Shown: positions 18,565-54,497 of the stretch, one piece after another
Position numbering within the stretch: position 1 is the first letter of the stretch
Layout: the number at the start of each line of letters is the position of its first letter
Assembly (NCBI GenBank): GCA_030145325.1
Contig: JAQYVW010000009.1
Coordinates: forward strand, 473 to 64,472
Direction of reading: 5' to 3'
Origin: Desulfurivibrionaceae bacterium
GTDB taxonomy: Bacteria; Desulfobacterota; Desulfobulbia; Desulfobulbales; UBA5123
DNA: 64,000 bases
Program-made: the position numbers and the translations under genes
The notes under the pieces: generated by a model
Seen by the model: only the letters and a program-made list of their open reading frames with translations
Told to the model about the DNA's origin: nothing
The model's database searches: none

Positions 18565-19539
18565 CTAAAACGAAGAAGGATCATGCTGATAAACACTGGT
18601 TGCAGAAATACGTGGCGATACTTTCTCAGCCTGCCAGTTACAGATCGCCCATTGCCAGAACTCTTCAACGCTCCCCTTGCTCAATTCTAACGGTGGCGAT
18701 TGACCAAGAAAATCCAGGGCCTGCCAAAGAGCCGGCAGTGGCTTACTAAGCGATAAGGGAGGTGCATGGGTCTGCTTGGAAAGCTTTGCCCCATCTTCGT
18801 TAACCGCCACGGGCAGATGCAGATAACGGGGTGTCAAAACCCCCAAAGCCTGTTGGAGATAAATCTGCCGAGGCGTTGAGTCAAGAAGGTCGCTGCCTCG
18901 CACCACCTCGGTAATCCCTTGGGCGGCGTCATCAACCACCACCGCCAACTGGTAAGCAACCAAGCCATCAGCCCGAAAAACAACGAAATCGCCCACCTCA
19001 TTCCCAAGATTTTGTCGTTGCTCACCCTGTAACCGATCTACGAAAGAAATATCCTCTGCCGCGACCATAATCCGCACCGCCTGTCTCCCTTGATGCTCAG
19101 AAATTCTCTTCCCGCGACAGGTTCCGGCATAGACGCCTGTCGGCAAACTCAATGCCGCCTGACACTCCACCTGCCGTTTGCGAGAACATGTGCAGGGATA
19201 GGCAAGACCTCTTTTACAAAGATCATCCAGCGCCGCTCGGTAAGCCTCGCGGCGACGACTCTGCCACACCACCTCCCCATGCCATACAAAACCATAAGCC
19301 TCCAGGGTACGAAGGATCAAATCAGCAGCGCCGCCAACCTCCCGGGGAGGGTCAATATCCTCCATCCGCACCAACCAGCGACCATGACAACTCTTCGCTT
19401 GCAGGTAGCTACCCATGGCCGCCACCAGAGACCCGAAATGCAATGGCCCGGTGGGAGAAGGAGCAAAACGCCCCACGTAGAGTCCCTCTCTTTTTGCACC
19501 GTCCCAACGCCCTGCCCCAGCCATCTCCACCCCATCCAT
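18565..19539 (-). CDS. gluQ: Glutamyl-Q tRNA(Asp) synthetase
   Basis: It has a class I synthetase core (GRFAPSPTGPLHFGSL; KLSKQ) with the truncated GluRS-like length and no anticodon-binding domain. The start may be the second Met. Confidence 0.85.
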   Translation of the reverse strand: MDGVEMAGAGRWDGAKREGLYVGRFAPSPTGPLHFGSLVAAMGSYLQAKSCHGRWLVRMEDIDPPREVGGAADLILRTLEAYGFVWHGEVVWQSRRREAYRAALDDLCKRGLAYPCTCSRKRQVECQAALSLPTGVYAGTCRGKRISEHQGRQAVRIMVAAEDISFVDRLQGEQRQNLGNEVGDFVVFRADGLVAYQLAVVVDDAAQGITEVVRGSDLLDSTPRQIYLQQALGVLTPRYLHLPVAVNEDGAKLSKQTHAPPLSLSKPLPALWQALDFLGQSPPLELSKGSVEEFWQWAICNWQAEKVSPRISATSVYQHDPSSF

Positions 19540-19873
19540 AAATTATCGTAATAACTATTAGAAAAAGAACCACAACACCCGCTTTCAAGAGAAAAAAACA
19601 TCTTACCCACAAATGATACTCTTTTACATTTCACTTTCCCTTTGCAATATTGCTAATAATCAATAATAAACTAATAATAATCTCGAAATACGGCATCTAC
19701 ACCTGCTAGCAACTTATCAAGTTCCAATATACTGTTGCACACGGAGACAACTCACACCTATAACATGAATAACCACCCACATCCAAAAGACATAGATTGA
19801 ATAGGGAACAGATACTTAATGAACAGCCAATATTATCCTTTAATATAATAGCTACCCCACCCAAAGAGCCGCC

Positions 19874-20539
19874 ATGACAGAAGCCAACGAAACCACCCAA
19901 CCTACGACAAGTCCTAAAAGCAGTCAGGAAGGAAAATACCTCACCTTCTCCCTGGCTGGCGAGGAGTACGGCATCCCGGTACTCAAGGTAAAAGAGATCC
20001 TCGGCATGATGCCGATCAACACCATCCCCCATACCCCCGAAGCCGTCAGGGGCATAATCAACCTTCGGGACAAAGTAATCCCCATCTTGGACCTGCGGGC
20101 TCGTTTTCAAATGGACGCAACCGCAGAAACCAGCACCACCTGCATCATCGTGGTGGAAGGGCAACGGGCAGATCTTGAACCTTGCTGGGAGGTCAAACAA
20201 TGCGGCAAACCGGACTGCCCTGCCCACGGGAGCACCGACCATCGTTGCTGGATGGTTTCGGGAACATTCTGCCGCGATGAAATCCAAGGTGCCTTTCATG
20301 AAAAAATCAAGTCGTGCCGGAAGTGTAATTTTTACCAATCAATGCACGAAGAGAAGGCGATGTTCGTGATGGGGATCATCGTGGATGCGGTGCAAGAGGT
20401 TTCAATCTTCAAAGATGAGGAGATTGAAGATGCCCCACCCATGAGCGGTAATATCCAGCTCAACTACATTCGCGGCATTGCCAAAAAAGAAGGCTCGGTA
20501 AAAATCCTCCTGGATGTGGATAAGGTTCTGATCGGCTAA
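19874..20539 (+). CDS. CheW-like coupling protein interrupted by a Cys-rich (two-CW-like) insertion
   Basis: The CheW core aligns with the two canonical CheWs in this window (KYLTF.LAGE.YG, G.INLR.KVIP..D.R.RF, TCI.VV ... G..VD.V.EV). About 66 aa (R98-M163) with 7 Cys and two CW dipeptides are inserted between the two halves. Confidence 0.85.
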   Translation: MTEANETTQPTTSPKSSQEGKYLTFSLAGEEYGIPVLKVKEILGMMPINTIPHTPEAVRGIINLRDKVIPILDLRARFQMDATAETSTTCIIVVEGQRADLEPCWEVKQCGKPDCPAHGSTDHRCWMVSGTFCRDEIQGAFHEKIKSCRKCNFYQSMHEEKAMFVMGIIVDAVQEVSIFKDEEIEDAPPMSGNIQLNYIRGIAKKEGSVKILLDVDKVLIG

Positions 20540-20582: not shown

Positions 20583-22805
20583 TCAACGCAGAGTACCAAG
20601 GTAATTAAAGGTGGAGGGGCGCTGCCGGAGAGGTTTCCCGCCCTTACCTGCCGCCAAACCGGCAAGCTGTTCCAAATCCCCCTTCCGCAAACGCAGCAAG
20701 GAAACATCAACCACCCCGTAACGAATCCCCATCCCGGCCAACTCACTCTGCTTGCCCAACAAAGAAAAAACCTGATCGGCTACCGCCACGGTCTGCCCCC
20801 AGGCCTCCTTGAGCATAAATCCCTCCCCTTTGGGGCTAAGAAAAGGTCGATCATACTGGAAATGTCCCGCCTTGAGCCGGGCAATGAACAGTGGGATGGC
20901 CCCATAAATGGTCAACCCCGTTTCCACTCCCTTAGCGCCAGCAACCAGAGCAGCCAGATTGTCATGATCACTCTCAATGGAGCATTGCGCCTTACCGATG
21001 CCAAGCTCAGTAACACAACGTAAGGCCAGGGAGTTGAGAATATTGAGGGTATAATCGCCGTTGATGGACAAACGACGGCGACGCGGTGGCCGCTTTTTCT
21101 TCTTCCCCTTACTGACCCGCCGCACCGGCTCGCTCTGTAACAAACTCAACTGGCCAATGTGCCCAACCTGCCACTCAACAAAGCCACTGCGGGTCAACTC
21201 AGCAATGGTACGTCGATAAAAAGAGAGATCTTTTTCAAGAATAATTGGCGGCAAGGCCCAGACCAAGCGGCCCAAGACATCCTCCAAGCGGCGGCGTTGG
21301 TGCTTAAATTGACTCAATGATTCCGGGGTCAAGGTCACCACGATTCGCTCTGGAGATGCAGGCAAATGCTTCCGTAACAAGCTGAAATCACCGACCTTCA
21401 ACCACCACCGCAACACCCGGGCACCCTTGCCAACTGCCAGCGCTGCTGGCGGCGACTCAATTTCACCGGCTAACGAAGCAAATCCTTCGGCGCGCAAAGA
21501 GTCCAGCACCAAATGCATTTTTTTACGGATAGCCGGATCATCCGCCTCCTTGCGGAACAACTCCGGCCTCACCTGGTCATCCTTCATCCCCTCTGCTCGC
21601 CGCTCACAGCTATCCACCTTGTACAAACTATCGCCGGGAGTGGCGTTTTCCGGCAGCTCAATGGTAACTCCGGCCCCCACGGCGGCCTGATCAATCTCCC
21701 CCCCCTCACTGCGCATCTCCTTCAGGGTAAAAGCCAATCGTTCCCCACTCTTCTCCTGATGCAGTCGCAAGCGGTCACCACCACGAAGGGGTTCTTTCAA
21801 GACCAAGCGGGCCGACTTGCCACGGCTGGACTCAATGCGGCCAAGGAATAGGCCGATATTGCCGGAATGCTGCGGTGAGATAGCGTCCACCGGCTGGGGA
21901 GTAGTAAAATAACCACTGGTGGAACGCCGCCCCATGGCCTCACGCAATCTTTCATGGGCAACAGCCAAGGTTTTACGATCACCGGGCTGGGCATCAATGG
22001 CCAGCCGATAAGCGGCAGTCACCGCCCCCACATAACTGGCGCTGCGCATCCGCCCCTCGATTTTAAGGGAAGTCACCCCGGCCTCACGAAGTTGCGGGAT
22101 AAGATCGATTCCAGCCAGATCATTCATGGAAAACAGGTAGCCGGACTGGGCACCGCCTTTCCCCTTGCCACTCCAAGTATAACGACGTCGACAAGGTTGC
22201 ACACAGCGACCACGCAGGCCACTTTTCCCACCTTGGTAGCTACTGAACAGACACAACCCCGAATAACTAAAGCAGAGGGCGCCATGGATAAAAACTTCCA
22301 ACTCCACCTTGTTCTGCTGGTGGATATAGGCTATCTCCGGGAGGGTCATTTCTCGAGATAACACCACCCGCTGAAAGCCCATTTTGCTAAACTGCCGCAC
22401 CGCCACAGAATTATGCCCGGCCAACAGGGTACTGGCATGCAAGCGCAGGTTTGGGAAATATTTTCGGGCCAACCGATACAGTCCCAAATCTTGAAGGATT
22501 AAAGCGTCCACCCCCAGATGCTCCAAAGCGGCCAGGGTATGAGTGGCAGTGGGGATATCCTCTTCCTTCATCAGGCTGTTCATGGCCACATAGACCTTAA
22601 CCCCATGGCGGTGGGCATAGTCAACCATGGCCGCGATCTCAGCCATGACAAAATGCTTGGCCAGGGCGCGGGCATTGAGGGTCGGAGCGCCGATATAGAT
22701 AGCATCCGCCCCTGCCGCCACCGCAGCCTCAAAGGCTTCGAGAGTTCCGGCCGGAGCCAGCAATTCAAGGGGTTGATTGCTCTTTTCCGTTACCAAGGTC
22801 TTCAT
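20583..22805 (-). CDS. U32-family peptidase-like protein (long form)
   Basis: It has an N-terminal U32 TIM-barrel signature (LELLAPAG..E...AAV.AGADAIYIG; E.F.HGALC.SYSG.C) plus a long C-terminal extension. Confidence 0.8.
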   Translation of the reverse strand: MKTLVTEKSNQPLELLAPAGTLEAFEAAVAAGADAIYIGAPTLNARALAKHFVMAEIAAMVDYAHRHGVKVYVAMNSLMKEEDIPTATHTLAALEHLGVDALILQDLGLYRLARKYFPNLRLHASTLLAGHNSVAVRQFSKMGFQRVVLSREMTLPEIAYIHQQNKVELEVFIHGALCFSYSGLCLFSSYQGGKSGLRGRCVQPCRRRYTWSGKGKGGAQSGYLFSMNDLAGIDLIPQLREAGVTSLKIEGRMRSASYVGAVTAAYRLAIDAQPGDRKTLAVAHERLREAMGRRSTSGYFTTPQPVDAISPQHSGNIGLFLGRIESSRGKSARLVLKEPLRGGDRLRLHQEKSGERLAFTLKEMRSEGGEIDQAAVGAGVTIELPENATPGDSLYKVDSCERRAEGMKDDQVRPELFRKEADDPAIRKKMHLVLDSLRAEGFASLAGEIESPPAALAVGKGARVLRWWLKVGDFSLLRKHLPASPERIVVTLTPESLSQFKHQRRRLEDVLGRLVWALPPIILEKDLSFYRRTIAELTRSGFVEWQVGHIGQLSLLQSEPVRRVSKGKKKKRPPRRRRLSINGDYTLNILNSLALRCVTELGIGKAQCSIESDHDNLAALVAGAKGVETGLTIYGAIPLFIARLKAGHFQYDRPFLSPKGEGFMLKEAWGQTVAVADQVFSLLGKQSELAGMGIRYGVVDVSLLRLRKGDLEQLAGLAAGKGGKPLRQRPSTFNYLGTLR

Positions 22806-38279: not shown

Positions 38280-39572
38280 ATGCAGCCAAAAGATATCAAA
38301 CCAATCATTAAACCATTTTCTATCCCGGAAAAGTCAGATTTCGACATCCTCATTGTCGACGATGAATTCGTTAACCGGTTCCTGCTTAAGGATATTCTGG
38401 AACAGGACGGTTATCGAACCCACGAGGCAAACAATGGCACCGAGGCCCTTGCCGCTGCCATCAACAACAAAACGGATCTGATTCTGATGGATATCATGAT
38501 GCCGGACATGGATGGCTATGAAACCTGCCGACGGTTGAAGGAAGACCCGTGCACCGCCAACATCCCGGTTATCTTCGTTACCGCCCTCACCGATACTGAA
38601 AATTTGGTCAAGGGATTCTCCGTCGGCGCTGAAGACTACCTGGGCAAACCAATTAAGGACGGTGAGGTAAAGGCCAGGGTGCAAACACACCTGAAACTGA
38701 AAGCCGCCATGGACAAGATCTCTCACTATAATGAAGAACTGGAACAGGTGGTGGCGGAAAGCTCCAAAGAGTTGATCCGCACTGAACGGCAAGCCGCCTT
38801 TGGACAACTCATCCAGGGAATCGTCCATAATCTCAAAGGACCGCTGACCACCATTCGGGGCAGTGCCCAGGCCTGCCGGGCCACGCTGCGGATGATTCGT
38901 ACCGAAATAGACGAGGCCGGAGAAACTCCCTTGCCCGACAACCCCAAAATCACCAAACTTACTGACGGGGCAATAAAGGCCATTGATCTTTCCGAAACCG
39001 CTTCCACTCGCCTCACGGAAATGATCAACTCACTGATGTCAAAAAGCAGCGCCGACCAGGCCAGCAAGCCGGAACGTCTTGACTTAAATACCATTGTCCG
39101 CTCGGAACTGAACTTCATGGAAGGTGATCTGCATTTCAAACACCATATCAAAAAGAATATCGAACTAACCCCTTCTCCGCTCCCGATCATGGCCATTGCC
39201 CCGGAAATAGCCCAGGTTTTCAATAATATAATCGGCAACGCCATTGATGCCATGCATGGCAATGTTGACCAGGCAATATCCATCTCCACAACGAAAAAAA
39301 ACCGGTATGCCAGTCTGTCGATTTCCGATACCGGCAACGGCATTGCCCCTGATAACCTTAACCGAATCTTCGACCCCTTTTTCACCACCAAACCGAAACA
39401 CAACAACGATACACCTCAAAAAAAGGGACCAATCGGCACCGGCTTAGGCCTTTACATGTGTATGCGATCAATAAAAACTATTAATGGCGACATTGTGGTT
39501 GAAAGTAAACCTGGCTCAGGCACGACCTTCAAAATTAAAATACCGCTGGCCGAGCCCATAGATATTTCGTGA
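38280..39572 (+). CDS. Receiver-histidine kinase fusion (REC-HisKA-HATPase)
   Basis: The N-terminal REC contains ILIVDDE...DIMMPDMDG...GKP. The H-box is IVHNLKGPL, followed by N/G boxes (IGNAIDAM, DTGNGI, GTGLGL). It is the first gene of the chemosensory cluster. Confidence 0.85.
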   Translation: MQPKDIKPIIKPFSIPEKSDFDILIVDDEFVNRFLLKDILEQDGYRTHEANNGTEALAAAINNKTDLILMDIMMPDMDGYETCRRLKEDPCTANIPVIFVTALTDTENLVKGFSVGAEDYLGKPIKDGEVKARVQTHLKLKAAMDKISHYNEELEQVVAESSKELIRTERQAAFGQLIQGIVHNLKGPLTTIRGSAQACRATLRMIRTEIDEAGETPLPDNPKITKLTDGAIKAIDLSETASTRLTEMINSLMSKSSADQASKPERLDLNTIVRSELNFMEGDLHFKHHIKKNIELTPSPLPIMAIAPEIAQVFNNIIGNAIDAMHGNVDQAISISTTKKNRYASLSISDTGNGIAPDNLNRIFDPFFTTKPKHNNDTPQKKGPIGTGLGLYMCMRSIKTINGDIVVESKPGSGTTFKIKIPLAEPIDIS

Positions 39573-39651
39573 CCGGCAACGACGAAGATAAATAATTAAA
39601 AAGCAACTACTCACGGGGGCATGGCTAATTCTCCCAATATGAGCGTAATTT

Positions 39652-39758
39652 TAACTGTTTGCAGGGTGCCGGAGATGAAAGGCATCGTTCTGCGAAACAT
39701 ACATTGGTATGTGAGCAGGGCGATAACGCGGCAGATTCGGTACCCTGTGAGCAGTTAC
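39652..39758 (+). repeat. Family-A intergenic inverted-repeat element, copy 3 (minimal 107-nt form)
   Basis: TAACTGTTTGCAGGGTGCCG (39652-39671) pairs with CGGTACCCTGTGAGCAGTTA (39738-39757) over 20 bp. All four non-Watson-Crick pairs are G-T on the + strand. There is also an internal ACATAC/GTATGT hairpin. Confidence 0.75.
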
Positions 39759-39793
39759 ATTAAAAAAATTCACCTCGGGACAAAGAGGAGCAG

Positions 39794-40225
39794 ATGATGG
39801 CTGAGAAACGCAAGAAATACAAAATACTGATCGTCGATGATGATCAAAACATCCTGAACATGCTGGATCTGGCGTTCATTAATACGTCCTACGATATCAC
39901 CACCATCGATCACCCCTTACACGCTTACAAAATGATCGAAAACGAACATTACGACATGGTGATCAGCGATATCCAGATGCCACAGATGGACGGCCTGACC
40001 CTGCTCCGCAAGATCAAAAACTTTAACGGTATGATCCAGGTTGTGATGATGACCGCCCACATTTCCATCAGCAACACCCTGGACGCCTTTCGCTACGGCG
40101 CGGTGGATATATTTTTTAAACCGTTCGCGGATATCAATGAAATCATTCTCGCCGCCGACGGGGTGGCTGCAAAACTGGACAGGGTAAACAACATCTTACG
40201 CCAGCTAACCGATGGAGACAGATAA
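39794..40225 (+). CDS. Single-domain CheY-like response regulator
   Basis: It is a 143-aa REC domain (ILIVDDD...DIQMPQMDG...FKP). Its stop codon is 3 nt before the start of CheA-1. Confidence 0.85.
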   Translation: MMAEKRKKYKILIVDDDQNILNMLDLAFINTSYDITTIDHPLHAYKMIENEHYDMVISDIQMPQMDGLTLLRKIKNFNGMIQVVMMTAHISISNTLDAFRYGAVDIFFKPFADINEIILAADGVAAKLDRVNNILRQLTDGDR

Positions 40226-40228
40226 GCC

Positions 40229-42553
40229 ATGAGCAGCGAAATGGATCTTGATGCCCTGCATGGCTTTCTCGATGAGTCAAGCGACTCCATGCAAGGCATT
40301 GAAGCAGACTTTATCGATCTCGAAAGAGATCCGACCAATATGGAGATCATCAACCGGATATTCCGCCCCATTCACAGCCTGAAAGGGAACTCCGGCTTCT
40401 TCGGCCTAACCAACATCAACAAATTCGCCCACCGCTTGGAAAACCTTCTCGACACCGTCAGACGAGGTGAACTTGCGATCACCAAAGAGATCATCGACAC
40501 CCTTCTCATCGGTGCAGATTTTCTTCGCCAAATGGTGGAACGGGTCTATGAGGACCCCACCGACGTCCTTTTGCGTGACAACGAAGAAGAGTTTTTAGGC
40601 AAGGTCGAACAATTCAAACCGGAAAAACCAACCGGCTCAATTGAGAGCATCCTGACCCTTGAAAAACTCGTCAACGAGGCGATGGATCACGGCATCTCCC
40701 CCACGGACAACACGTTAATCAGTACCCTGCTGGGAAAAATCGAAAAAGCCAACCAAGAAATCAAGCTCATCCTCAGTGACGTCAAAAACGCCGACTCCAC
40801 TGCCAAGCGATCCACCGCCGCCGCTTATATGATTGGTGATGAGGATCACTCCGCAGTGGTCAAACCGCTGCTTGATGTTGCAAGCCAAATGGACAAAAGA
40901 GCAACGGTTGACCGCCAACTCCTAGCTGAGTTCGAAAAATCCCTGGTCACCCTGAACGAGCTTCTTAAAGACGACAGTGACGCCGCCCATGAGTTAGAAG
41001 AACTGCAATCCATGAGCAACTTTCTTGACGATGAATTACTCATCACCAGCCAAGAATTCACCTCATCGACCACAGCATCCATTGATGCCGTTCTGAGCAA
41101 ATTCGACATCGTCAAAACCGAAAGCAAAGATATCGAAGCTGAATCATTTGGCAAGCTCGGAGAAATCCTTATCTCCCAAGACAAGGTCTCACCGGAACAA
41201 CTCACCGATGCGCTTAAAAAACAGAAGAAAGTTGGTGAAATACTGGTGGACGATGGCATTCTCAAGGACCAAGACCTCAAGGAAGCATTAACCATCCAGC
41301 AAAAAAATGCCTTGGCAGAGCATACCAAAAATGAACCTGTTGCTCGCGAAGTTAAAAAAACCATCCGTATCGATCAAGACAAGCTGGACAGTTTTGCCAA
41401 CTTCGTCGGCGAGCTGTTTATCAATATCGATTCTTTCAGCTTCCTGAAAAAGCAATTGGAAGAAACCGACGTCGACTTTGACCTCATGGCCCGCTTCACC
41501 AATACCATCACCTCCCTTGACGAGATGGTGGACACCCTGCAAGAAAGCATCATGGGGATCAGAAAGGTGCCCATCGACACCCTATTCAAACGCTTCCCCC
41601 GCGTAATCCGCCAACTAGCAGGCTCACTGAACAAGGATATCAACTTCAAAATCGTTGGCGAAGATACCGTCATCGACAAAGATCTGCTGGAAAAAATCGA
41701 GAATCCACTGGTCCATATGCTGCGAAATTCGGTGGATCATGGCATCGAAACGCCCGAAGAACGAACCAACAACAACAAGTCTGGCACCGGCACCTTGGAA
41801 CTGAAAGCGGCGGTGGATGAAAATTATGTTTATATCACCATCAACGATGACGGTAAGGGCATTGACCCGCAGATCATCAAGAAAGTGGCGCTGAAGAAAG
41901 AGCTCATCACCCCGGAAGAAGCTGAACAGATGCCAGACAAGGAGTTGATCAACCTCATCTTCAAACCGGGCTTCAGTTTAGCCGAAAAAATCAGCGATGT
42001 CTCAGGACGCGGCGTCGGCATGGATGTGGTGCAGTCGGTATTAAAAGAAACCAGCGGCACGGTGGAGGTAAACTCGGTAATTGACCAAGGCACTAAGGTT
42101 ACGATTAAGATTCCGTTAACCAAAACCCTGGTTGCCAAGGAGGCAATGATTGTTTCCGCTTATGAGCGAACACTGGCCATCCCCTCCGAGGATATTACCG
42201 CCACCATTGAAGCTAAGGACGAGGAAGCAACAAGACTTTTTTCCGGCGACAATTGTATCCAATACCACGGCGCGATTTATCAAGTCATCGATCTTGGCGC
42301 TTTCCTATTCCCCAAAACCATCCGCCAGCGACAAGATGCAGACCGGCATGTTATTATTGTCAGTGAAAAACATAACATCGCCCTATTAGTTGACGAAGTA
42401 TTGAGCCACCAAAAAATTGTCGTCAAAAACTTCACCGGCGGGTACAAAGCTTTAGACAGGGTCCGAGGCATCAACGGCTTTACAATCTTGGGTAACGAGG
42501 ATATTATCCTCATTGCCGATGTACAAAATATTACCGCCCACGCTGTTGATTAA
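40229..42553 (+). CDS. cheA: CheA-type histidine kinase 1 (Hpt, MshEN-like motif pair, dimerisation, HATPase, CheW-like)
   Basis: It has Hpt (FRPIHSLKGNSGFFGL), a P3 region (IRIDQDKLDSFANFVGEL), a kinase core (HMLRNSVDHGIE, DDGKGID, GRGVGMDVV) and a C-terminal CheW-like domain. The LGEILI.../VGEILV... tandem motif lies at aa 309-358. Confidence 0.9.
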   Translation: MSSEMDLDALHGFLDESSDSMQGIEADFIDLERDPTNMEIINRIFRPIHSLKGNSGFFGLTNINKFAHRLENLLDTVRRGELAITKEIIDTLLIGADFLRQMVERVYEDPTDVLLRDNEEEFLGKVEQFKPEKPTGSIESILTLEKLVNEAMDHGISPTDNTLISTLLGKIEKANQEIKLILSDVKNADSTAKRSTAAAYMIGDEDHSAVVKPLLDVASQMDKRATVDRQLLAEFEKSLVTLNELLKDDSDAAHELEELQSMSNFLDDELLITSQEFTSSTTASIDAVLSKFDIVKTESKDIEAESFGKLGEILISQDKVSPEQLTDALKKQKKVGEILVDDGILKDQDLKEALTIQQKNALAEHTKNEPVAREVKKTIRIDQDKLDSFANFVGELFINIDSFSFLKKQLEETDVDFDLMARFTNTITSLDEMVDTLQESIMGIRKVPIDTLFKRFPRVIRQLAGSLNKDINFKIVGEDTVIDKDLLEKIENPLVHMLRNSVDHGIETPEERTNNNKSGTGTLELKAAVDENYVYITINDDGKGIDPQIIKKVALKKELITPEEAEQMPDKELINLIFKPGFSLAEKISDVSGRGVGMDVVQSVLKETSGTVEVNSVIDQGTKVTIKIPLTKTLVAKEAMIVSAYERTLAIPSEDITATIEAKDEEATRLFSGDNCIQYHGAIYQVIDLGAFLFPKTIRQRQDADRHVIIVSEKHNIALLVDEVLSHQKIVVKNFTGGYKALDRVRGINGFTILGNEDIILIADVQNITAHAVD

Positions 42554-42733
42554 AGTCAAGGCGACAACACTCAACGGTTATGTTAAATACTTAAACACCT
42601 CTGACACTCATAACACGATGTGTTGCGAGCAACCGAAACAAAGAACTTCGCAATACTTATTTACGAAATAAACAAACCGGATCAGCACATTATAACCAAG
42701 ATCCTCCAGTAAACATATTCACCAGGCCATTTC

Positions 42734-44047
42734 ATGGGAACAATGGAATCAGATATTTTCAAGGAAGAAGCTTATGATCTTCTTGATGATATAGAAGAAG
42801 CACTCCTTGAATTACGTGACAACCCCGCTGACAGCGAACTAATTAACCGCCTATTCCGCGCCTTTCATACCATCAAGGGATCGGGGGCCATGTTCGGCTT
42901 CAAAGAGGTGTCAAAATTCACCCATGAGGTGGAAACCGCCATCGACAAAATCCGCGAAGGGACCGGGGTGGTGCCGGACGCACTGCGCGAAGTCCTTCTC
43001 ACCGCTCGCGACCAGATCCTCGCCATGATCGAGACGGAAGACCCTGACGCCCCAGAGATTCAGGAAGCGGCACAACTCATCCTCAAGCAACTGGCGCCTG
43101 CTGTCTCAGCAAAAGAAGCGCCACCCGTACAGCAGCCCCCCACCCCCAAGCCTGAACCTGCCGCCGCCCCGCCCGTTATTGCCACGGAAATGCCGACAGT
43201 CCCAAAAACAGAGCCCAAAATCAATAAAGATCCGGACCCTGAAACGCAAGCGCTGCTAACCGAACTTGCAGAACTACTCAATGAAGTTCGAGACTTGTTA
43301 CAAAAACTGCACGAAGAACCCGGCGCCAATAAACTTTGCAAAAAGCTCCACCGATCAATTCATACCGTTGCCGGCACAGCGGCCATGTATGACATGGAAG
43401 CCCTTGCCGAATTCAGCAACAAACTTACCGATATCACTGCCACCATCAAACAAGCTGAAGAACCAGTCAATGATGAAGTGTTAAAAGTACTCACCGCAGC
43501 TATCGACCACTGCTTTTCCCTTCTCCGTTCCACCGACCCATCGGGGCAGGTTCTACAAAGACGCTCAGGCAAAATTACCACCGAACTTGAAGCAATGGTC
43601 AACAAAGACCAAACCAGTATCGGAACAGCGCCGGAAACTTTACGATTCCTTATTGTTGAAGACGAATTCATTAGCCGTTACCTTCTCCAAGAATTCCTGA
43701 CTCCATACGGTAATAGCCATGTTGCCATAGACGGTTACGAGGCTGTCTTGGCTTTTAAAAACGCCATTATCGAAAAGAAACCATACAATATCGTCTGTCT
43801 CGATATCATGATGCCGGGACTTGATGGTCGACAAGTGGCCAAAGAAATTCGCCGCCTGGAAAAAGAAATGGGCAACAACAATTTCTGCAAGATAGTAATG
43901 ACCACGGCTTTAGACGACGAAAGCATCAAGAACGAGTTATTGTCAGATAAACGGTGTGATGCCTATCTGACCAAACCCATACGATTTGAAGACCTTGACC
44001 AATTAATAAAATCATACTTTCCAGACTTCAATACGACAAATAGCTAA
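42734..44047 (+). CDS. Hpt-Hpt-REC phosphorelay protein
   Basis: It has two Hpt signatures (FRAFHTIKGSGAMFGF; HRSIHTVAGTAAMYDM) separated by a Pro-rich linker. A C-terminal receiver follows (FLIVEDEF...DIMMPGLDG...TKP). Confidence 0.85.
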   Translation: MGTMESDIFKEEAYDLLDDIEEALLELRDNPADSELINRLFRAFHTIKGSGAMFGFKEVSKFTHEVETAIDKIREGTGVVPDALREVLLTARDQILAMIETEDPDAPEIQEAAQLILKQLAPAVSAKEAPPVQQPPTPKPEPAAAPPVIATEMPTVPKTEPKINKDPDPETQALLTELAELLNEVRDLLQKLHEEPGANKLCKKLHRSIHTVAGTAAMYDMEALAEFSNKLTDITATIKQAEEPVNDEVLKVLTAAIDHCFSLLRSTDPSGQVLQRRSGKITTELEAMVNKDQTSIGTAPETLRFLIVEDEFISRYLLQEFLTPYGNSHVAIDGYEAVLAFKNAIIEKKPYNIVCLDIMMPGLDGRQVAKEIRRLEKEMGNNNFCKIVMTTALDDESIKNELLSDKRCDAYLTKPIRFEDLDQLIKSYFPDFNTTNS

Positions 44048-44190
44048 CAATCACGACAACCTTTAAGGTAGCCAAAGAATTAACATGTTATAGACTTCCA
44101 AATCAATTACCATACCAGTAAGAGCTACCATTCCAATTAGTATTGATATCAGCAAGCATCGCTGACAAAAATGGCAAAAGGTGAACAAAC

Positions 44191-46500
44191 ATGTCCGACA
44201 AGCTGACGGATGAACAAGTAGAGATCATTGAAGAGTTCATTTGTGAAGTCCGCGACCTGATAGAGACTGCGGAGTCCGATATAATCGGTTTATCCTCCAT
44301 TTACAAAAACAATGAGTCCCAAACCTCAACCGAAAACCTAAAAACTCTTCACACCATCTTTCGTTGCTTCCATTCCATCAAGGGTGGCGCAGCCTTCCTG
44401 CAGTTCAACAATATGGTCACTTGCGCGCACAGCGCGGAAAATCTTCTCGATCTACTCCGAAATGATGAAATAACCCTTCTGCCAGGGCATATCGATCTGC
44501 TCTGCCAAGCCTGCGACTTCATCTCGATTGCTCTGGAACAACTTGAAACCAACCTCAATGATCACGAGCTCACAGAGCAAGCTAACGCCATCCACGATAA
44601 ATTTGAACGCGCCATCGCTGGTATCCCAGAACCGGAAGAATCCCCATCTGAGAACGAAAGCAATGACGACAGTTTATTAATCAATCTTGACCTCAACCCT
44701 TCTCAACTTATCAACCCGGACACACTTCACCATTTCATCGAGGAGTCCAGGGAACTTATTCAGAAAAGCGAAGCGGCTTTACTTGACTGGAGCAAAAACC
44801 CTAACGACTCCGACCCAGAACTAGTTGCGCAACTTTTTCGCAACATTCACAGCATTAAAGGCAACAGCGGTTTTCTCGGATTCTCCGACATGGAGCGCTT
44901 GGCCCACGGGATGGAGAACCTCCTTGATGCTGCCAGAGAAGGCGCCGCCATTAACCGCGGCAAAGCAGCAGAGACCCTCTTGGGGCTTGTAGACATAATC
45001 AGTCATGCCATGGAAGATATCGCCCAGGGAGAAGAATGTAAAATCAAAGGCATAGGCCTTCATCTCGAGGCATTGGCTGATCTTCTCCCCGACACCCCTT
45101 CCTCCAATGTACCGTTACCAAAACTTGGTGAAATTCTTGTCGATCAAGGCGTTGTCAGTGAAGACGCCCTGGAAAATGCCTTGGATGTCCAGAATAAACC
45201 TCTCGGTGAAATCCTGGTCGAAACCGGCGCAGCCACAGAAGAGCAAGTCGCGCAGGCCGTGCAAACTCAGAAGAAACAAGCAATCGTCCCAGGCAAGGCC
45301 ACAAAAACAACCGCTCGTCAGGACATCCGAGTTGACCTCGGCAAACTTGACAGTCTCATCAACCTCATCGGCGAAATGGTTATTGCTGAAAATATGTTGA
45401 TCAACAACCCTGATCTGCAAGATCTGGAATTGGAAAATTTCAACAAAGCCGGCCAGCACATGGACAAAATCATCCGTGAATTACAGGAAATGGCCATGTT
45501 TATCCGCATGGTGCCGGTGGCAGGCCTCTTTCGGCGCATGACCCGGCTGGTACATGATCTTTCCCGAAAATCCGGCAAAAAAGTTGACCTGCAACTGGTT
45601 GGAGAGACCACCGAGGTCGACAAAACGGTTATCGAATTAATTACTGACCCCCTGGTTCACCTTCTTCGCAACTCCATGGATCACGGCCTTGAGCCCCCAG
45701 AGGAACGCTTGCAAGCAGGCAAAAAAGATACCGGGATTCTACGTTTGTCCGCAACCCATGAAGAAGGCGAAGTCCTGATCACCATCACCGATGATGGGCG
45801 GGGGTTGAACAGAGAAAAAATCATCGCTAAAGCCATGGAAAAAGGTGTCCTTGACGATGATGGATCTCAGATGAGCGATTCAGATGTCTTTAACCTCATT
45901 TTCCTGCCCGGCTTTTCCACCGCCGACCAGGTTACCGATGTTTCTGGTCGCGGTGTTGGGATGGATGTGGTTCGCAAGAACCTTGAAAAGATCAAGGGCA
46001 AAATTGAAATTAAGAGCAAGCAAGGGGGCGGCACCACCATTATCTTGCGCATTCCGCTGACCCTGGCAATCATCGACGGGATGATGATCCGGGTGGGCAC
46101 TGCGCTATACATCGTGCCGCTTCTCTCAATCCGCGAATCATTCCGTCCCAGCCACGAATTGATTACCGTTTCTCCAGATGGTCAAGAACTGGCCAAGGTA
46201 CGCGAGAACCTGCTGCCGGTGGTGAGACTCCACGATCTTCACAAAATCAGCCCAGACTTCGATGAACTAGACAAAGGTATCCTCATTGTCCTTGAAGGCC
46301 AGGATCTTAATTTTTGCCTTTTTGTCGACGAAATCATGGGTCAGCAACAGACGGTTATCAAAGGTCTATCAGAATACATCTCCGTACTTGGCAATGTCGG
46401 CGGTGTTTCCGGCTGCACCATTCTCGGCAATGGCGATGTCTGCCTGATCCTTGATGTACATTCATTGGTGGATGTCGCTCTCAGCGATAACGAAGAGTGA
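44191..46500 (+). CDS. cheA: CheA-type histidine kinase 2 (two Hpt domains, MshEN-like motif pair, dimerisation, HATPase, CheW-like)
   Basis: It has Hpt1 (FRCFHSIKGGAAFLQF), Hpt2 (FRNIHSIKGNSGFLGF), a P3 region (IRVDLGKLDSLINLIGEM), a kinase core (HLLRNSMDHGLE, DDGRGL, GRGVGMDVV) and a CheW-like C-terminus. The tandem LGEILV motif lies at aa 311-360. Confidence 0.9.
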   Translation: MSDKLTDEQVEIIEEFICEVRDLIETAESDIIGLSSIYKNNESQTSTENLKTLHTIFRCFHSIKGGAAFLQFNNMVTCAHSAENLLDLLRNDEITLLPGHIDLLCQACDFISIALEQLETNLNDHELTEQANAIHDKFERAIAGIPEPEESPSENESNDDSLLINLDLNPSQLINPDTLHHFIEESRELIQKSEAALLDWSKNPNDSDPELVAQLFRNIHSIKGNSGFLGFSDMERLAHGMENLLDAAREGAAINRGKAAETLLGLVDIISHAMEDIAQGEECKIKGIGLHLEALADLLPDTPSSNVPLPKLGEILVDQGVVSEDALENALDVQNKPLGEILVETGAATEEQVAQAVQTQKKQAIVPGKATKTTARQDIRVDLGKLDSLINLIGEMVIAENMLINNPDLQDLELENFNKAGQHMDKIIRELQEMAMFIRMVPVAGLFRRMTRLVHDLSRKSGKKVDLQLVGETTEVDKTVIELITDPLVHLLRNSMDHGLEPPEERLQAGKKDTGILRLSATHEEGEVLITITDDGRGLNREKIIAKAMEKGVLDDDGSQMSDSDVFNLIFLPGFSTADQVTDVSGRGVGMDVVRKNLEKIKGKIEIKSKQGGGTTIILRIPLTLAIIDGMMIRVGTALYIVPLLSIRESFRPSHELITVSPDGQELAKVRENLLPVVRLHDLHKISPDFDELDKGILIVLEGQDLNFCLFVDEIMGQQQTVIKGLSEYISVLGNVGGVSGCTILGNGDVCLILDVHSLVDVALSDNEE

Positions 46501-46668
46501 TTCACCCGCATCGCACGTCCCTCCCCGCCCTCCACACTACAAAGCTGTAAACATCCCACGACTTTGTTAACAATTACGTAACACTCACCCCACACCTTTC
46601 TCGCTCGCCCCTTCACCCTACGTATAAAAAGTTCCTAATTACAACACAATGAGATGGCTGTTCCAGCC

Positions 46669-46685
46669 TGGCACATTTCGTGCAT
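46669..46685 (+). promoter_or_regulatory. Putative sigma-54 (-24/-12) promoter for MCP-1
   Basis: The sequence is TGGCACATTTCGTGCAT. GG and GC are separated by exactly 10 nt, as in the TGGCAC-N5-TTGCW consensus. It lies about 110 nt upstream of the MCP-1 ATG. Confidence 0.55.
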
Positions 46686-46794
46686 TTCCTTCTCAAGTTC
46701 GAGGAAGATGCTCAATCACCTTCACTGGTCTAAAAAATGGCATCGTCAAAACAAAAAAGCCATTACCGGCCTTTCATTTTATGGAGAACTATTA

Positions 46795-49737
46795 ATGTTC
46801 AAGAATCTTAAACTTACCAAAAAACTCCTTATTGCTTTTCTCGGCGTAGGGCTAATCCCTTTTGCTGCCGTTGGCCTTACCGCTCTACTTAAAGCCAGTA
46901 GCGCCCTTGATCAGTCGGCATTTAATCAATTGCAGTCGGTTCAGGCAATCAAGAAAGCTCAGATCCAACGCTTCTTCACCGAGCGTAAAGGCGACATGGC
47001 CGTGTTACTGAATACCACTGCCGCTTTTGACGATGAGGTAAGCAGTAAAATTTACGCCATCCAAAACAACAAGAAAGAAGCGCTGGAACTGATCAGCCAG
47101 CAATGGTTCACCGATATCAAGATCCAGCAAGGTCAGGACATTTCCAGCAAAGGTTTGCCGCACTTCCAAAATTATCTCAAAACAGGCAAGAAATCGGCGC
47201 AATACAAACACTACGCCACGCAAGTTTCGCAATTCATGAAGGCCACCGGCTACTACGATTACTTTGTCATCGACAAATCCGGCCTTTGCGTCTTCACCGA
47301 CGCCAAGGAGGCGGATTACAAAACAAACCTTCTTAACGGCCCCTACAAAGACTCCGGCCTTGGAGTCGCCACCAAACGCGCCTTCAATGGAGAAACAGCC
47401 ATTGAAGATTTCGCTTCCTATGCACCCTCAAACGGCGCCCCAGCTGCTTTTATTGCTGCCCCGATCCGAAGAGGGAAAAACATCATCGGGGTTGTCGCCC
47501 TGCAAATCCCCCATGAAAAGGTGCAAGCCATTGTTGCCGAACGCACCGGCCTCGGCATAAGCGGCGAGGCTTACCTTGTGGGCAGAAAGGACGGCAAAAC
47601 CGGCTATCGCAGCAATCGCGTCATCAAGAACGGCAAGCTCGGCCAGGATAAAAATGGTGCCGACATCAACAAGGCGCTGGTAGGCGAAGCAGGGGTTCGC
47701 TTCAAGAAGGGCAGCACCGGCGACATGGAACTGGTCGCCTATACACCGGTTAAGATCCCCGGCCTTGACTGGGCTTTAATCACCTCCATGAGTCTCGAAG
47801 AGGCCATGGCTCACAAAGAAAAAGGCGATAAAGAGGATTACTTTGCAAAATACGTCAGGCAATACGGCTACTACGACCTCTTCCTGATTGAACCGGAAGG
47901 CAAGGTTTATTACTCGGTGACCCATGAGGCCGATTACGATACCAATATGATTAATGGCAAGTACGCCGATTCCGGGCTCGGTAAACTGGTCCGCCGGGTT
48001 ATTCAGGAAAAGAAATACGGGGTAGCAGACTTCGCCCCCTATGCACCCAGCAACAACGAACCAGCCGCTTTCATCGCCGCTCCTGTTTTTCGCAACGGCG
48101 AACTCCAACAGATCGTCGCCCTGCAACTGTCACTGGAGGCGATCAACAACATCATGCAGCAGCGTGAAGGGATGGGCGAAACCGGCGAGACTTATCTGGT
48201 TGGCCCGGACAAACTTATGCGTTCGGACTCCTTCCTTGACCCCACCAATCATTCGGTCAAAGCCTCGTTTGCCAACCCAACCACCGGCAGTGTCAACACC
48301 GAGGCCGCCCGCGAAGCACTGGCCGGACAGTCCGATTCTAAAATCATCATCGACTATAACGGCAATCCGGTTCTTTCCGCCTACACCCCACTGAAGGTTG
48401 GCGACAGCACCTGGGCAGTCATCGCCGAAATTGATGAAGCAGAGGCCTTTGCGGCCATCAACACCTTGAAATGGGTAATAGGTATCGTCTTTGTCGTCGG
48501 CATGGCCGCCATTATCGTCGTTGCCCTGACCATCACCCGTTCCATCACTCAGCCGGTGAGCAAAACCGTCCTCATGCTTGACGAGATGGCCAAGGGTCAC
48601 CTGGACAACCGACTAAACATGGATCGAGGCGACGAGATCGGCCAGATGGCTAAGACCATGGACTCTTTTGCCGATAGTTTGCAAAACGAAATGGTGGCAG
48701 CGCTGAACAAGCTGGCTGACGGCGACCTAACCTTTGATGCCAATCCACACGATGAGAATGACACCATCAGAAACTCGCTGAAAAAAACCGGTGACGACCT
48801 GAACAAACTGATCTCCGAAATCCTCACCGCCACCGAACAGATCGCCAGCGGTTCCGGCCAGGTTTCCGATTCCAGCCAGGCCCTCTCCCAAGGGGCGACA
48901 GAACAGGCGGCATCACTTGAGCAGATCACCAGCTCCATGACCGAGATGGGCTCACAAACCAGATTAAACGCCGAGAACGCCACCCAGGCCAATCAGTTAG
49001 CCAGCCAGACCAGGAGTGCAGCAGAAAGCGGCAATACGAAAATGCAGGAGATGGTCTCGGCCATGGGTGAAATCAACGAGGCGGGCCAAAGCATCTCCAA
49101 GATCATCAAGGTTATTGATGAGATTGCCTTTCAGACCAACCTACTGGCCTTGAACGCGGCAGTGGAAGCGGCCCGGGCCGGGCGTCATGGCAAGGGTTTT
49201 GCGGTGGTTGCAGAAGAGGTACGCAACCTGGCTGCCCGTAGCGCCAAGGCAGCTAAAGAAACCGCAGAGCTCATCGAAAGCTCGGTGGAAAAAACCAAGA
49301 ACGGCACCCAAATCGCCGAGGCGACCAGCGAGGCACTGGCCGAAATAGTCGGCTCGGTCACCAAGGTCACCGATCTTGTCGGCGAAATCGCTGCCGCTTC
49401 TAATGAGCAGGCGCAAGGAATCAACCAGACAAATCAGGCCTTGGGCCAGATCGATCAGGTAACCCAGCAGAACACCGCCAGCGCCGAAGAGAGCGCCGCT
49501 GCCTCGGAAGAGCTTTCCGGCCAGGCCATGCACATGAAAGAGATGATGAGCCGCTTCCGGGTCCGCGACATGGGCCAAGGAGGGATGCGCCAGCAACCCA
49601 TGTCACGGCAACAAAACGGCTGGGGAAACGCAACGCAACAACCACTGCCGCAACCACAGGCCCCAGGCCATTTACCCCGCCCCTTTGCGCCAAGTGAAAT
49701 AATAACCTTGGACGACAAGGAATTCGGTAAATATTAA
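46795..49737 (+). CDS. Methyl-accepting chemotaxis protein 1 (duplicated double-Cache-like periplasmic sensor, HAMP, MA domain)
   Basis: I set the start at the ATG at 46795, which has a GGAG Shine-Dalgarno 8 nt upstream and aligns with the MF(K/S)..KL..KLLIAFL N-termini of the other two MCPs. The signalling hairpin is [21 protein letters not shown]. The ORF-track start at 46654 adds 47 non-homologous residues. Confidence 0.9.
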
Positions 49738-49762
49738 TCGCTATAATAGCGAATGTTTCCAA

Positions 49763-49797
49763 ATGGCGTCCCTAGGTTCAGGGACGCCATTTTTTTT
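49763..49797 (+). terminator. Rho-independent terminator after MCP-1
   Basis: ATGGCGTCCCT pairs with AGGGACGCCAT in an 11-bp stem with a 6-nt loop, followed by T7. Confidence 0.85.
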
Positions 49798-49931
49798 AAT
49801 TTTTTTCTATCAAATAACTACCCAAAAGCGTTCAACAAAAGTGTACACATCTATTCAATTTTGTTGAACATTCACCTTACGCCTAACAATGCACATATGC
49901 ACAACACCTTTAAATCATTGTAAAAAATAAT

Positions 49932-49960
49932 TTGACAGCTTTACAACAGTTACTGATAAT
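49932..49960 (+). promoter_or_regulatory. Putative sigma-70-type promoter of cheW-mcp cassette 1
   Basis: TTGACA (49932-49937), a 17-nt spacer, then GATAAT (49955-49960). The block is conserved in cassette 2. Confidence 0.55.
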
Positions 49961-50095
49961 AAAAATCCTAGGCATTCTCAGTTGGTAATATCATAAAACA
50001 CTGCCCCTTAACCCCATTTCCAAAAGACTCCTTTGGCAACCTCACTTTCGCAACAGGAATTGCTAAAATAGAGCATTTTAACAAGGAGAGAAGCT

Positions 50096-50602
50096 ATGGC
50101 TGAAGATCAAGTTGTCGACATGGAGGATGATCTCTACGACGACGAAGACACCATGAAGGACAAGTACCTCACCTTCCATCTGGCCGGTGAGGATTACGGC
50201 CTTGACATCGTTTTTGTCACCGAGATCATCGGCATCCAGAAAATCACCGAAGTGCCGGACATGCCTAACTTTGTTAAGGGGGTAATCAACCTACGCGGCA
50301 AGGTAATCCCGGTGATGGACGTACGGTTACGTTTCAACTTGCAGGAACGTGATTACGACGAACGCACCTGTATCGTAGTCGTTGATATTAACGGCACCGC
50401 CGTCGGCCTTGTTGTTGATCAGGTCAACGAGGTGGCCGATATCCCCGAGGCACAGGTCGAGCCGCCCCCACGCACCACCAAGGGGACGACCAGCCGCTTC
50501 TTAAAGGGCATGGGCAAGGTGGATGAAGAAGTCCGCATCCTGCTCAATGTCGACAAGCTGCTCTACGACGAAGAAATGGAAATGCTTGCTGGTGCGGCGT
50601 AA
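50096..50602 (+). CDS. cheW: CheW coupling protein (copy 1)
   Basis: It is a 168-aa canonical CheW domain with an acidic N-terminal extension (MAEDQVVDMEDDLYDDED). Confidence 0.9.
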   Translation: MAEDQVVDMEDDLYDDEDTMKDKYLTFHLAGEDYGLDIVFVTEIIGIQKITEVPDMPNFVKGVINLRGKVIPVMDVRLRFNLQERDYDERTCIVVVDINGTAVGLVVDQVNEVADIPEAQVEPPPRTTKGTTSRFLKGMGKVDEEVRILLNVDKLLYDEEMEMLAGAA

Positions 50603-50648
50603 TCTTTCCTGAGAAAAAATCACAACATAACAAATAACGAGGTGAACA

Positions 50649-53588: not shown

Positions 53589-53611
53589 CAACGTAAAAAT
53601 ATCATAAAAAA

Positions 53612-53650
53612 ATGGCGTCCCTGGTTTTCCCAGGTGACGCCATTTTTTTT
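53612..53650 (+). terminator. Rho-independent terminator after MCP-2
   Basis: ATGGCGTCCCTGG pairs with CCAGGTGACGCCAT (one bulge), followed by T8. It is homologous to the MCP-1 terminator. Confidence 0.85.
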
Positions 53651-53780
53651 ACTATTTCTATCGACCTACCACAAGAAGGCAGTTCAACAGATTTGAACAT
53701 ATGTTCTCAGTTTTGTTTAACATTTCACAAGACCTAACCACAAGCACACCCACACCTTCAACATAATTACAAAAAATAAT

Positions 53781-53810
53781 TTGACACCTTCATGTACGTC
53801 TGCTGATAAT
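53781..53810 (+). promoter_or_regulatory. Putative sigma-70-type promoter of cheW-mcp cassette 2
   Basis: TTGACA (53781-53786), a 17-18-nt spacer, then (T)GATAAT. It is a paralogous copy of the 49932 promoter block. Confidence 0.55.
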
Positions 53811-53944
53811 AAAAACTCTAGGCATTATCAGTTGGCAATATAGTAAGATCCTAATCCTTATCACCATCACAAAATGTTCTTTTGCAACTACACCTCCGCA
53901 AGAGGAATTGCAAAAACAGAACACTTTAAACCAGGAGAGAAGCA

Positions 53945-54451: not shown

Positions 54452-54497
54452 TCAATCGCCACAACAACACTTTATAAAACTAAAATGAGGTATTCAT

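Follow-up and report, generated by a model that had tools for sequence, protein, structure and literature searches.

A solitary CheW coupling protein carrying a two-CW domain nested in its β6–β7 hairpin

Overall architecture of CheW-2CW

A stretch of 64,000 nucleotides from a Desulfurivibrionaceae bacterium (assembly GCA_030145325.1, contig JAQYVW010000009.1; hereafter the window) contained a solitary gene for a CheW protein interrupted by a nested two-CW domain, which is referred to here as CheW-2CW. It is near certain that this protein is a complete CheW coupling protein with a two-CW domain nested in the β6–β7 hairpin. The gene was located at positions 19874–20539 on the plus strand and encoded 221 residues followed by a stop codon, as defined by the list of open reading frames (ORFs) and by the Pfam and NCBIfam matches.

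The whole protein matched the CheW profile of Pfam (PF01584) in two stretches, with a score of 112.8 bits against a cut-off of 23.5 and an E value of 1.2e-32. The N-terminal part of the CheW fold, containing strands β1–β6 (residues 21–97; 19934–20164, plus strand), formed the first stretch and covered profile positions 1–77 of 138. The C-terminal part, containing strands β7–β10 and the terminal helix (residues 164–221; 20363–20536, plus strand), formed the second stretch, which was detected by both Pfam and phmmer. The profile was broken at position ~77, between about 77 and 78, by an insert of 66 residues. This insert (residues 98–163, RADLEPCWEV...HEEKAM; 20165–20362, plus strand) was located at the tip of the β6–β7 hairpin and was flanked by the sequences TCIIVVEGQ and FVMGIIVDAVQEV. 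At the site of the break, the canonical 168-residue CheWs of the window (50096–50602 and 53945–54451) read TCIVVVDINGTAVGLVVDQVNEV.

The insert contained seven cysteines, Cys104, Cys110, Cys115, Cys125, Cys133, Cys148, and Cys151, and two CW dipeptides, Cys104-Trp105 and Cys125-Trp126. The core from Cys104 to Cys151 (20183–20326, plus strand), which was delimited by conservation among homologues, had the pattern C-x5-C-x4-C-P-x8-C-W-x6-C-x14-C-x2-C and included a clade-specific histidine, His141. The initial annotation, made from the sequence alone, had described a CheW split at 20165–20362 by a seven-cysteine insertion with two CW dipeptides, and its coordinates, translation, and cysteines all matched. 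It had also likened the insert to a two-CW domain, and the profile search bore this out: the insert alone matched the NCBIfam model NF045718 (two_CW_domain) with 51.4 bits and an E value of 1.1e-13, and the whole protein matched it with 47.3 bits, both above the curated cut-off of 35. No Pfam family, zf-CW included, matched the insert at E ≤ 1, and no second two-CW pattern was found in the six frames of the whole window.

A protein identical to CheW-2CW was on record in the NCBI data (P0001), and proteins of this type carried only the name "chemotaxis protein CheW" given by the Prokaryotic Genome Annotation Pipeline. The CheW-2CW gene was overlapped by an antisense ORF of 210 residues (19706–20338, minus strand). 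As the protein of the plus strand explained all of the conservation, this ORF is probably no gene but a by-product of the coding strand.

Conservation of the insert

In a homologue search of 5.8 billion proteins, clustered at the 90% identity level, about 45 insert-bearing clusters of 200–295 residues, with 47–84% identity to the query, were followed by ordinary CheWs of 160–170 residues. The same insertion with conserved cysteines was thus recovered in the survey of CheW homologues that the initial annotation had proposed. Each of the seven cysteines was kept in 43–44 of the 44 aligned insert-bearing homologues, and His141, in the motif FHEK, was kept in 43 of these 44 members of the close CheW clade. 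Such conservation of the cysteines greatly exceeds what chance would give. The mean pairwise identity was 73% for the insert core, 68% for the CheW N-terminal part, and 60% for the C-terminal part. When compared with the Desulfobulbaceae orthologues, the insert had a proportion of nonsynonymous differences (pN) of about 0.09 and a proportion of synonymous differences (pS) of about 0.72, equal to those of the flanks. Purifying selection on the insert is as strong as on the two CheW halves.

Insert-bearing sequences with the same junctions came from dozens of independent assemblies (NCBI metagenome-assembled genomes (MAGs), ENA, JGI, and Logan), and the G+C content of the insert equalled that of the rest of the gene. 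An assembly chimera, a pseudogene, and a chance cysteine-rich insertion therefore have practically no probability, because the same junctions, the seven cysteines, the selection, and the G+C content were shared across independent assemblies; the synteny conserved in three Desulfobulbaceae genomes and the hidden Markov model (HMM) match above the cut-off also stand against them. On the side of an artefact no support was found, and the window comes from a contig of the metagenome type. The independent assemblies and the purifying selection both back the junctions, on which the initial annotation had made its reading depend. A recent foreign insertion was likewise ruled out, because the G+C content of the insert equalled that of the gene and the family was old.

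Distribution of CheW-2CW

A scan of species-representative genomes with a pattern built from the insert gave 80 loci, and in nine of these a two-CW domain was encoded with a CheW half on either side. These nine comprised three MAGs of Desulfobulbaceae (UBA5123, UBA5121, and Bin57), the Olavius-associated Delta 1, two uncultured deltaproteobacteria, two Desulfobacterales, and one Planctomycetia MAG. In the remaining 71 loci the two-CW domain was located in ORFs of about 190–1380 residues, none of which matched the narrow CheW model used; comparable two-CW proteins scanned with Pfam were kinases and cyclases. Loci of Nitrospirota and Actinomycetota, where tblastn matches extended past the insert, had been considered as further CheW-2CW genes and were rejected, as only the nine loci carried both CheW halves.

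The CheW profile was also broken at positions 76–80 in distant relatives with 23–41% identity (P0129, P0137, P0146, P0196, P0197, P0209, and P0215). The two-CW domains embedded in CheW tended to be mutual nearest neighbours, which is consistent with, and does not prove, a single old insertion event into CheW. CheW-2CW is an old, conserved, and selected family of solitary genes, which occurs in Desulfobulbaceae as well as in other Desulfobacterota and in at least one MAG of Planctomycetia. Complete or near-complete genomes with the gene included CP070697.1, CAWCGB010000001.1, and CAWGVV010000002.1. Its identity to insert-less deltaproteobacterial CheWs of 170 residues was 56–57%.

Two proteins of 344–346 residues (P0125 and P0135) were fusions of PAS_3 with CheW-2CW, in which the CheW profile was again broken at positions 76–80, and each represents one CheW with two candidate input modules. 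Two entries of 131 residues named CheW (P0273 and P0096) started with "MTKCWEV...", within the two-CW domain.

Predicted structure and site of insertion

The AlphaFold2 (AF2) model of the whole protein had a mean predicted local distance difference test (pLDDT) score of 82 and a predicted template modelling (pTM) score of 0.75, and all ten CheW strands were present. The insert, with pLDDT values of 69–84, exited after the strand of residues 90–97 and re-entered at the strand of residues 163–170, and these two strands were adjacent. When the isolated domain was modelled, its core had a pLDDT of about 90 and was compact, with scant regular secondary structure. The structure prediction suggested by the initial annotation thus gave the insert as a folded unit of its own, whose chain departs from the CheW barrel and returns to it between adjacent strands. 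In the Foldseek search, the CheW-2CW model matched the CheW chains 2qdl_B, 8c5v_E, and 6s1k_C with target-normalised TM values of 0.82–0.85, so that the two-subdomain β-barrel of CheW was intact.

In the phmmer alignment with E. coli CheW (2HO9, 6S1K, and 8C5V), Arg98 of the query was placed on Arg96, and the alignment resumed with Phe164 on Arg96/Val97, so that residues 164–219 were aligned with residues 96–151. The insertion point therefore corresponded to Gln95/Arg96 of E. coli CheW, and the two-CW domain was placed between the equivalents of Gln95 and Val97, at the tip of the β6–β7 hairpin. The receptor-contact residues Ile33, Val36, Glu38, and Ile39 of E. coli CheW were aligned with Val36, Val39, Glu41, and Ile42 of CheW-2CW. 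The receptor-contact residues Val105 and Val108 and the residue Arg62 were aligned with Val173, Val176, and Arg65, respectively (list of E. coli residues from PMC13098124, Table 1), and Gly63, an interface-1 residue of E. coli CheW, was replaced by Asp in the CheW-2CW clade.

Residue Arg96 of E. coli CheW lies within 4 Å of CheA in both models of the core signalling unit, 6S1K and 8C5V, whereas Gln95, Val97, and Val98 lie within 4 Å of CheA in 8C5V only (Allen, Shah and Thompson 2026, Table 1, PMC13098124). The contact of Arg96 with the P5 domain of CheA (CheA-P5) is interface 1, and in CheW-only rings a cysteine at this position (R96C) is crosslinked by disulfide bonds to E121C, F122C, and A123C in the adjacent CheW (PMC13098124). 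Since Arg96 contacts both CheA and the adjacent CheW, the alignment indicates that no neutral loop has been interrupted and that the two-CW domain is inserted at the border of the contact by which the CheA/CheW and CheW/CheW rings are built. The initial annotation had placed the insert in a surface loop, which can be refined to the hairpin tip equivalent to Gln95/Arg96.

The two-CW domain family

When 1.84 billion representatives of 50%-identity clusters were searched exhaustively with HMMER, 1213 representatives had two-CW matches at E ≤ 1e-3, and 191 reached E ≤ 1e-10. Among 92 two-CW proteins scanned for partner domains, 31 had HisKA/HATPase_c, 15 GGDEF, 16 HAMP, about 19 PAS, nine CheW, seven MCPsignal, and three HD-GYP. 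In several kinases and a cyclase, P0149, P0166, P0171, and P0188 among them, the two-CW domain lay upstream of HisKA or GGDEF by 40–55 residues, which is the classical place of an input domain. Two copies of it were present in ten proteins. Stand-alone proteins of ~100 residues, named "two-CW domain-containing protein", were found in Bryobacteraceae and Paludibaculum (Acidobacteria), and unnamed stand-alone homologues were found in Bacteroidetes, Deferribacteres, and a MAG of Aenigmarchaeota, an archaeon. These stand-alone proteins had the same seven cysteines with longer loops. The initial annotation had described the domain as a module of anaerobes, and the stand-alone forms in Acidobacteria, Bacteroidetes, and an archaeon make that limitation too narrow.

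In 159 two-CW domains from other proteins, each cysteine was kept in 156–159, and a tryptophan followed the first cysteine (C1) in 139 and the fourth (C4) in 156. The family consensus was C-W-e-x-k-x-C-x-k-x2-C-P-a-y-x5-r-C-W-x2-a-G-T-x-C-x-g-e-v-Q-G-x-f-a-x-K-x3-C-x2-C. In the sequences inspected, the spacings C4-x7-C5-x14-C6-x2-C7 were invariant, and those of C2–C3 and C3–C4 were variable. The position of His141 was occupied by Ala in most two-CW domains and by Tyr in divergent CheW-2CWs, and for this reason His141 was rejected as a universal eighth ligand.

Several further arrangements were observed in the family. Tandem two-CW domains were present in P0121–P0128, P0153, P0159, and P0164. 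The 187-residue P0153 gave four matched stretches in the full-library search and two on local re-scan, and it seems to repeat a shortened two-CW unit without the first two cysteines. In P0144 (826 residues), the PAS profiles matched over their first ~40 positions only (residues 279–321), directly before the two-CW domain (residues 341–396), which may therefore be nested within a PAS domain in the same way as in CheW. Adjacent paralogues of ~590 residues, with the two-CW domain at about residues 100–175, were found in MAGs of Actinomycetota/Thermoleophilia (L023, L039, L049, L074, L082, and others), and some Actinomycetota MAGs had several such loci. This indicates a strong expansion of the two-CW family in deep-subsurface Actinomycetota.

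Proposed function of the nested domain

CheW-2CW could be a sensor-CheW with a metal- or redox-responsive domain at the kinase and ring contact, a reading to which we give somewhat less than an even chance. The CheW body would dock on the receptors and in the ring. The seven-cysteine domain would fold around a bound metal, Zn and/or an Fe–S cluster; metal binding, as Zn or Fe–S, is a reasonable inference from seven invariant cysteines in a cytoplasmic module of 50 residues. The two-CW domain may be regarded as an input module, because in histidine kinases, GGDEF/HD-GYP proteins, and MCP chemoreceptors it takes the place of an input domain, being located immediately upstream of the HisKA or GGDEF output or among HAMP, PAS, and GAF modules. 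The nested domain would then sense a cytoplasmic redox, metal, or thiol-reactive signal and report it directly into the array. Because the domain hangs on the interface-1 hairpin, a changed metal or oxidation state would alter the CheW–P5 contact, the CheW–CheW ring contact, or the contact with the CheA domains under the ring, and the altered contact would change the kinase coupling or the connectivity of the array.

A wider form of the proposal is possible but on balance doubtful: the two-CW domain may be a new sensor fold for redox or metals, with an Fe–S or Zn-thiolate cluster, that is employed throughout bacterial signalling and in CheW-2CW would act as a switch in the CheW/CheA-P5 (and CheW/CheW) ring contact, so that redox would gate coupling or connectivity while bypassing the receptors. 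If true, this would be an undescribed route of sensory input at interface 1.

Several observations weigh against the sensor-CheW. The seven cysteines do not make up two classical four-ligand sites, the extra histidine is clade-specific, and C5 (Cys133), the least conserved of the cysteines, has given way to Ser in a few two-CW members. Neither the ferredoxin motif CxxCxxCxxxCP nor a Fer4 profile was present in the insert, where the spacing is C-x5-C-x4-CP...C-x7-C-x14-C-x2-C; the two-CW domain is not a ferredoxin-type 4Fe-4S domain, nor is it the eukaryotic zf-CW. No relative that would indicate a metal site was found in the PDB, with no match at E ≤ 10 for either the isolated model in Foldseek or the family profile against the PDB sequences. 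No paper on the two-CW domain or NF045718 was found in the literature, and hence no reported metal, ligand, or phenotype for any two-CW protein. The residue mapping was derived from E. coli and the closest insert-less relatives have a longer hairpin, so the contact may differ here. In addition, the CheW-2CW gene never adjoined cheA in any context examined; in the more distant relatives examined, the neighbours differed and no cheA was found within 6–8 kb. The solitary position is thus a trait of the family.

Small cysteine-rich domains are often structural Zn modules, and the nested domain might be a constitutively metal-stabilised knob, probably with Zn, which carries no signal and adds a docking surface or changes the ring geometry, for example in favour of one particular CheA paralogue, of rings made of CheW only, or of a cytoplasmic array. 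The confident, compact AF2 domain with little regular secondary structure and its position at a protein–protein interface agree with such a module, and conservation by itself does not tell structure from sensing. However, the two-CW domain is almost confined to signal-transduction proteins, where it takes input positions and occurs in tandem copies, which is unusual for a structural knob, and stand-alone versions of roughly 100 residues exist. We regard the structural module as unlikely, if still a serious possibility. Since the insertion coincides exactly with a residue that contacts CheA and the receptor-contact residues are conserved, the protein might also be a decoy, in which the insertion blocks the binding of CheA-P5 while receptor binding is kept, so that it competes with canonical CheW and caps or loosens the arrays, perhaps conditionally. 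The replacement of Gly63 at interface 1 by Asp in the clade and the orphan gene, transcribed apart from the che operons in every context examined, would fit such a role. However, most of the other positions of interface 1 belong to well-conserved stretches of CheW, an insertion at the extreme tip of the hairpin need not disrupt the strand contacts, and there is no experimental hint of a decoy, which we consider quite unlikely.

A CheW scaffold that works outside the motility arrays, coupled to a non-chemotaxis pathway of a CheA-like or other kinase or to stand-alone partners encoded elsewhere, appears less probable still. The orphan location among housekeeping neighbours, the identity of only 37–39% to the CheWs of the che cluster in the window, and the presence of a REC-NMT1_2-CheW protein near the gene in two relatives (L004 and L086) speak for it, but the nearest insert-less relatives are ordinary CheWs of 170 residues with 56–57% identity, and the receptor-binding residues are retained.

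Comparison with other coupling proteins

CheW-2CW was a CheW by its profile, its fold, and its receptor-contact residues, and a two-CW protein by the HMM cut-off and by its seven cysteines with two CW dipeptides. It shared the fold and the receptor-contact residues with canonical E. coli CheW (2HO9, 6S1K, and 8C5V), but had 66 extra residues between the equivalents of Gln95 and Arg96, and its clade was without the C-terminal acidic tail helix. The proteins matched by NF045718, a family defined by sequence only, shared the curated HMM match and the seven-cysteine pattern with the insert. Most of these were stand-alone proteins of roughly 100 residues with longer loops, or kinases, cyclases, or methyl-accepting chemotaxis proteins (MCPs), whereas the loops were shortened in the domains embedded in CheW, which in the close clade also had an additional conserved histidine.

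Sensing through domains fused to CheW is documented for CheWS, CheW-CZB, and PAS-CheW (PMC10653840). CheWS of Treponema denticola is a CheW fused to a CheR-like domain that senses S-adenosylmethionine, was modelled below the ring, and has been proposed to pass a signal from inside the cell to the array, possibly touching CheA (Muok et al. 2023, PMC10653840). Like CheW-2CW with its putative input domain, it is a CheW scaffold with an extra input domain; however, its sensor follows on the CheW domain as an appendage and is not nested at the interface-1 hairpin, and the CheR-like and the seven-cysteine two-CW families are unrelated. CheW-CZB and PAS-CheW (PMC10653840) join CheW to a recognised cytoplasmic sensor domain, and CZB, a Zn-thiolate redox sensor of hypochlorous acid, is a plausible functional analogue. 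These proteins are terminal fusions detectable with Pfam, whereas the two-CW domain is nested, has no Pfam model, and is unrelated in sequence to CZB. CheV (CheW-REC) is likewise a coupling protein with a built-in additional domain, regulatory in its case, but its C-terminal REC is under phosphorylation control, and nothing of that kind was found in CheW-2CW by the Pfam and NCBIfam scans.

Because its domain is nested, CheW-2CW falls outside the definition of the sensor-fused CheWs, which have the extra domain at a terminus. By analogy, it probably resembles them in function and works like them, and it is likely a new nested form beside the known terminal ones (CheV, CheW-CZB, and CheWS). A large survey of CheW-like domains dropped every column that E. 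coli CheW lacks and makes no mention of insertions (bioRxiv 10.1101/2022.05.07.491035). As the two-CW domain is not in Pfam, the architecture is invisible to Pfam-based CheW censuses, and surveys of this kind miss nested, non-Pfam domains. A 2026 review states explicitly that it is an open question how signals pass the ring interfaces between CheW and CheA (PMC13098124). A naturally occurring CheW whose probably switchable domain is placed at a contact residue of interface 1 would offer an existing tool for probing this interface. CheW-2CW also points to a large unstudied signalling module, with at least 1200 clusters at 50% identity among kinases, cyclic di-GMP enzymes, MCPs, and stand-alone proteins, and the soluble protein of 221 residues would be a convenient biochemical entry point to it.

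Gene neighbourhood and the che cluster

The CheW-2CW gene was located between two genes of the minus strand. The divergent neighbour (18565–19539) encoded a GluQ-RS-like protein with the catalytic domain of class I Glu/Gln tRNA synthetases (PF00749), and the convergent neighbour (20583–22805) encoded a protein of the peptidase U32 family (PF01136). Because both neighbours are on the opposite strand, CheW-2CW is monocistronic by layout, as the initial annotation had stated. This arrangement was conserved in Desulfobulbaceae relatives at 62–79% identity, with the GluQ-RS-like gene kept in L001–L003, L005, and L007 and the U32 peptidase gene kept in L001–L003 and L005–L007.

The divergent intergenic region (19540–19873) was 334 bp long and A+T-rich, with a G+C content of about 0.35–0.41 compared with 0.52 for the window. 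A promoter-like sequence, TGAACA-18-TATAAT (19820–19849, plus strand), was located 25 nucleotides upstream of the ATG and had 10 of 12 consensus matches, being a match to the consensus only. A scan of the region for σ70-like sites gave four against 1.3 expected, and three of them, all on the plus strand, were within 19540–19873. No intrinsic terminator was predicted after the gene on the plus strand.

Unusual proteins of 577–650 residues with REC, NMT1_2, and CheW domains were encoded a few kb from CheW-2CW in two distant relatives, L004 (10856–12589) and L086 (10550–12502). In L004, CheW-2CW was also followed by a second, canonical CheW of 165 residues.

The window contained a che cluster with candidate partners (38280–56678, plus strand), which was assigned by Pfam scans and began at ~38.3 kb. 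The initial annotation had placed CheW-2CW far from the che cluster; the cluster begins 17.7 kb downstream in the same window, which qualifies that description. The cluster encoded a REC-HATPase protein (REC-HK; 38280–39572), a CheY-like REC (39794–40225), a first CheA paralogue (40229–42553), an Hpt-REC protein (42734–44047), a second CheA paralogue with two Hpt stretches (44191–46500), an MCP (46654–49737), and two CheW+MCP modules (50096–53588 and 53945–56678). The CheWs of these modules, each of 168 residues, had 37–39% identity to CheW-2CW. Neither CheB nor CheR was seen among the ORFs scanned in the cluster.

The CheW+MCP module was tandemly duplicated, the CheWs being 90% identical and the MCPs 84% identical over 649 residues. 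The sensor regions of these MCPs mostly gave no Pfam match at E ≤ 1e-5. In the MCP of 979 residues, the periplasmic sensor region was present in an additional copy at the N terminus: residues 1–339 of this MCP were 37% identical to residues 1–303 of the 726-residue MCP, and its residues 333–979 matched residues 84–726 of the latter.

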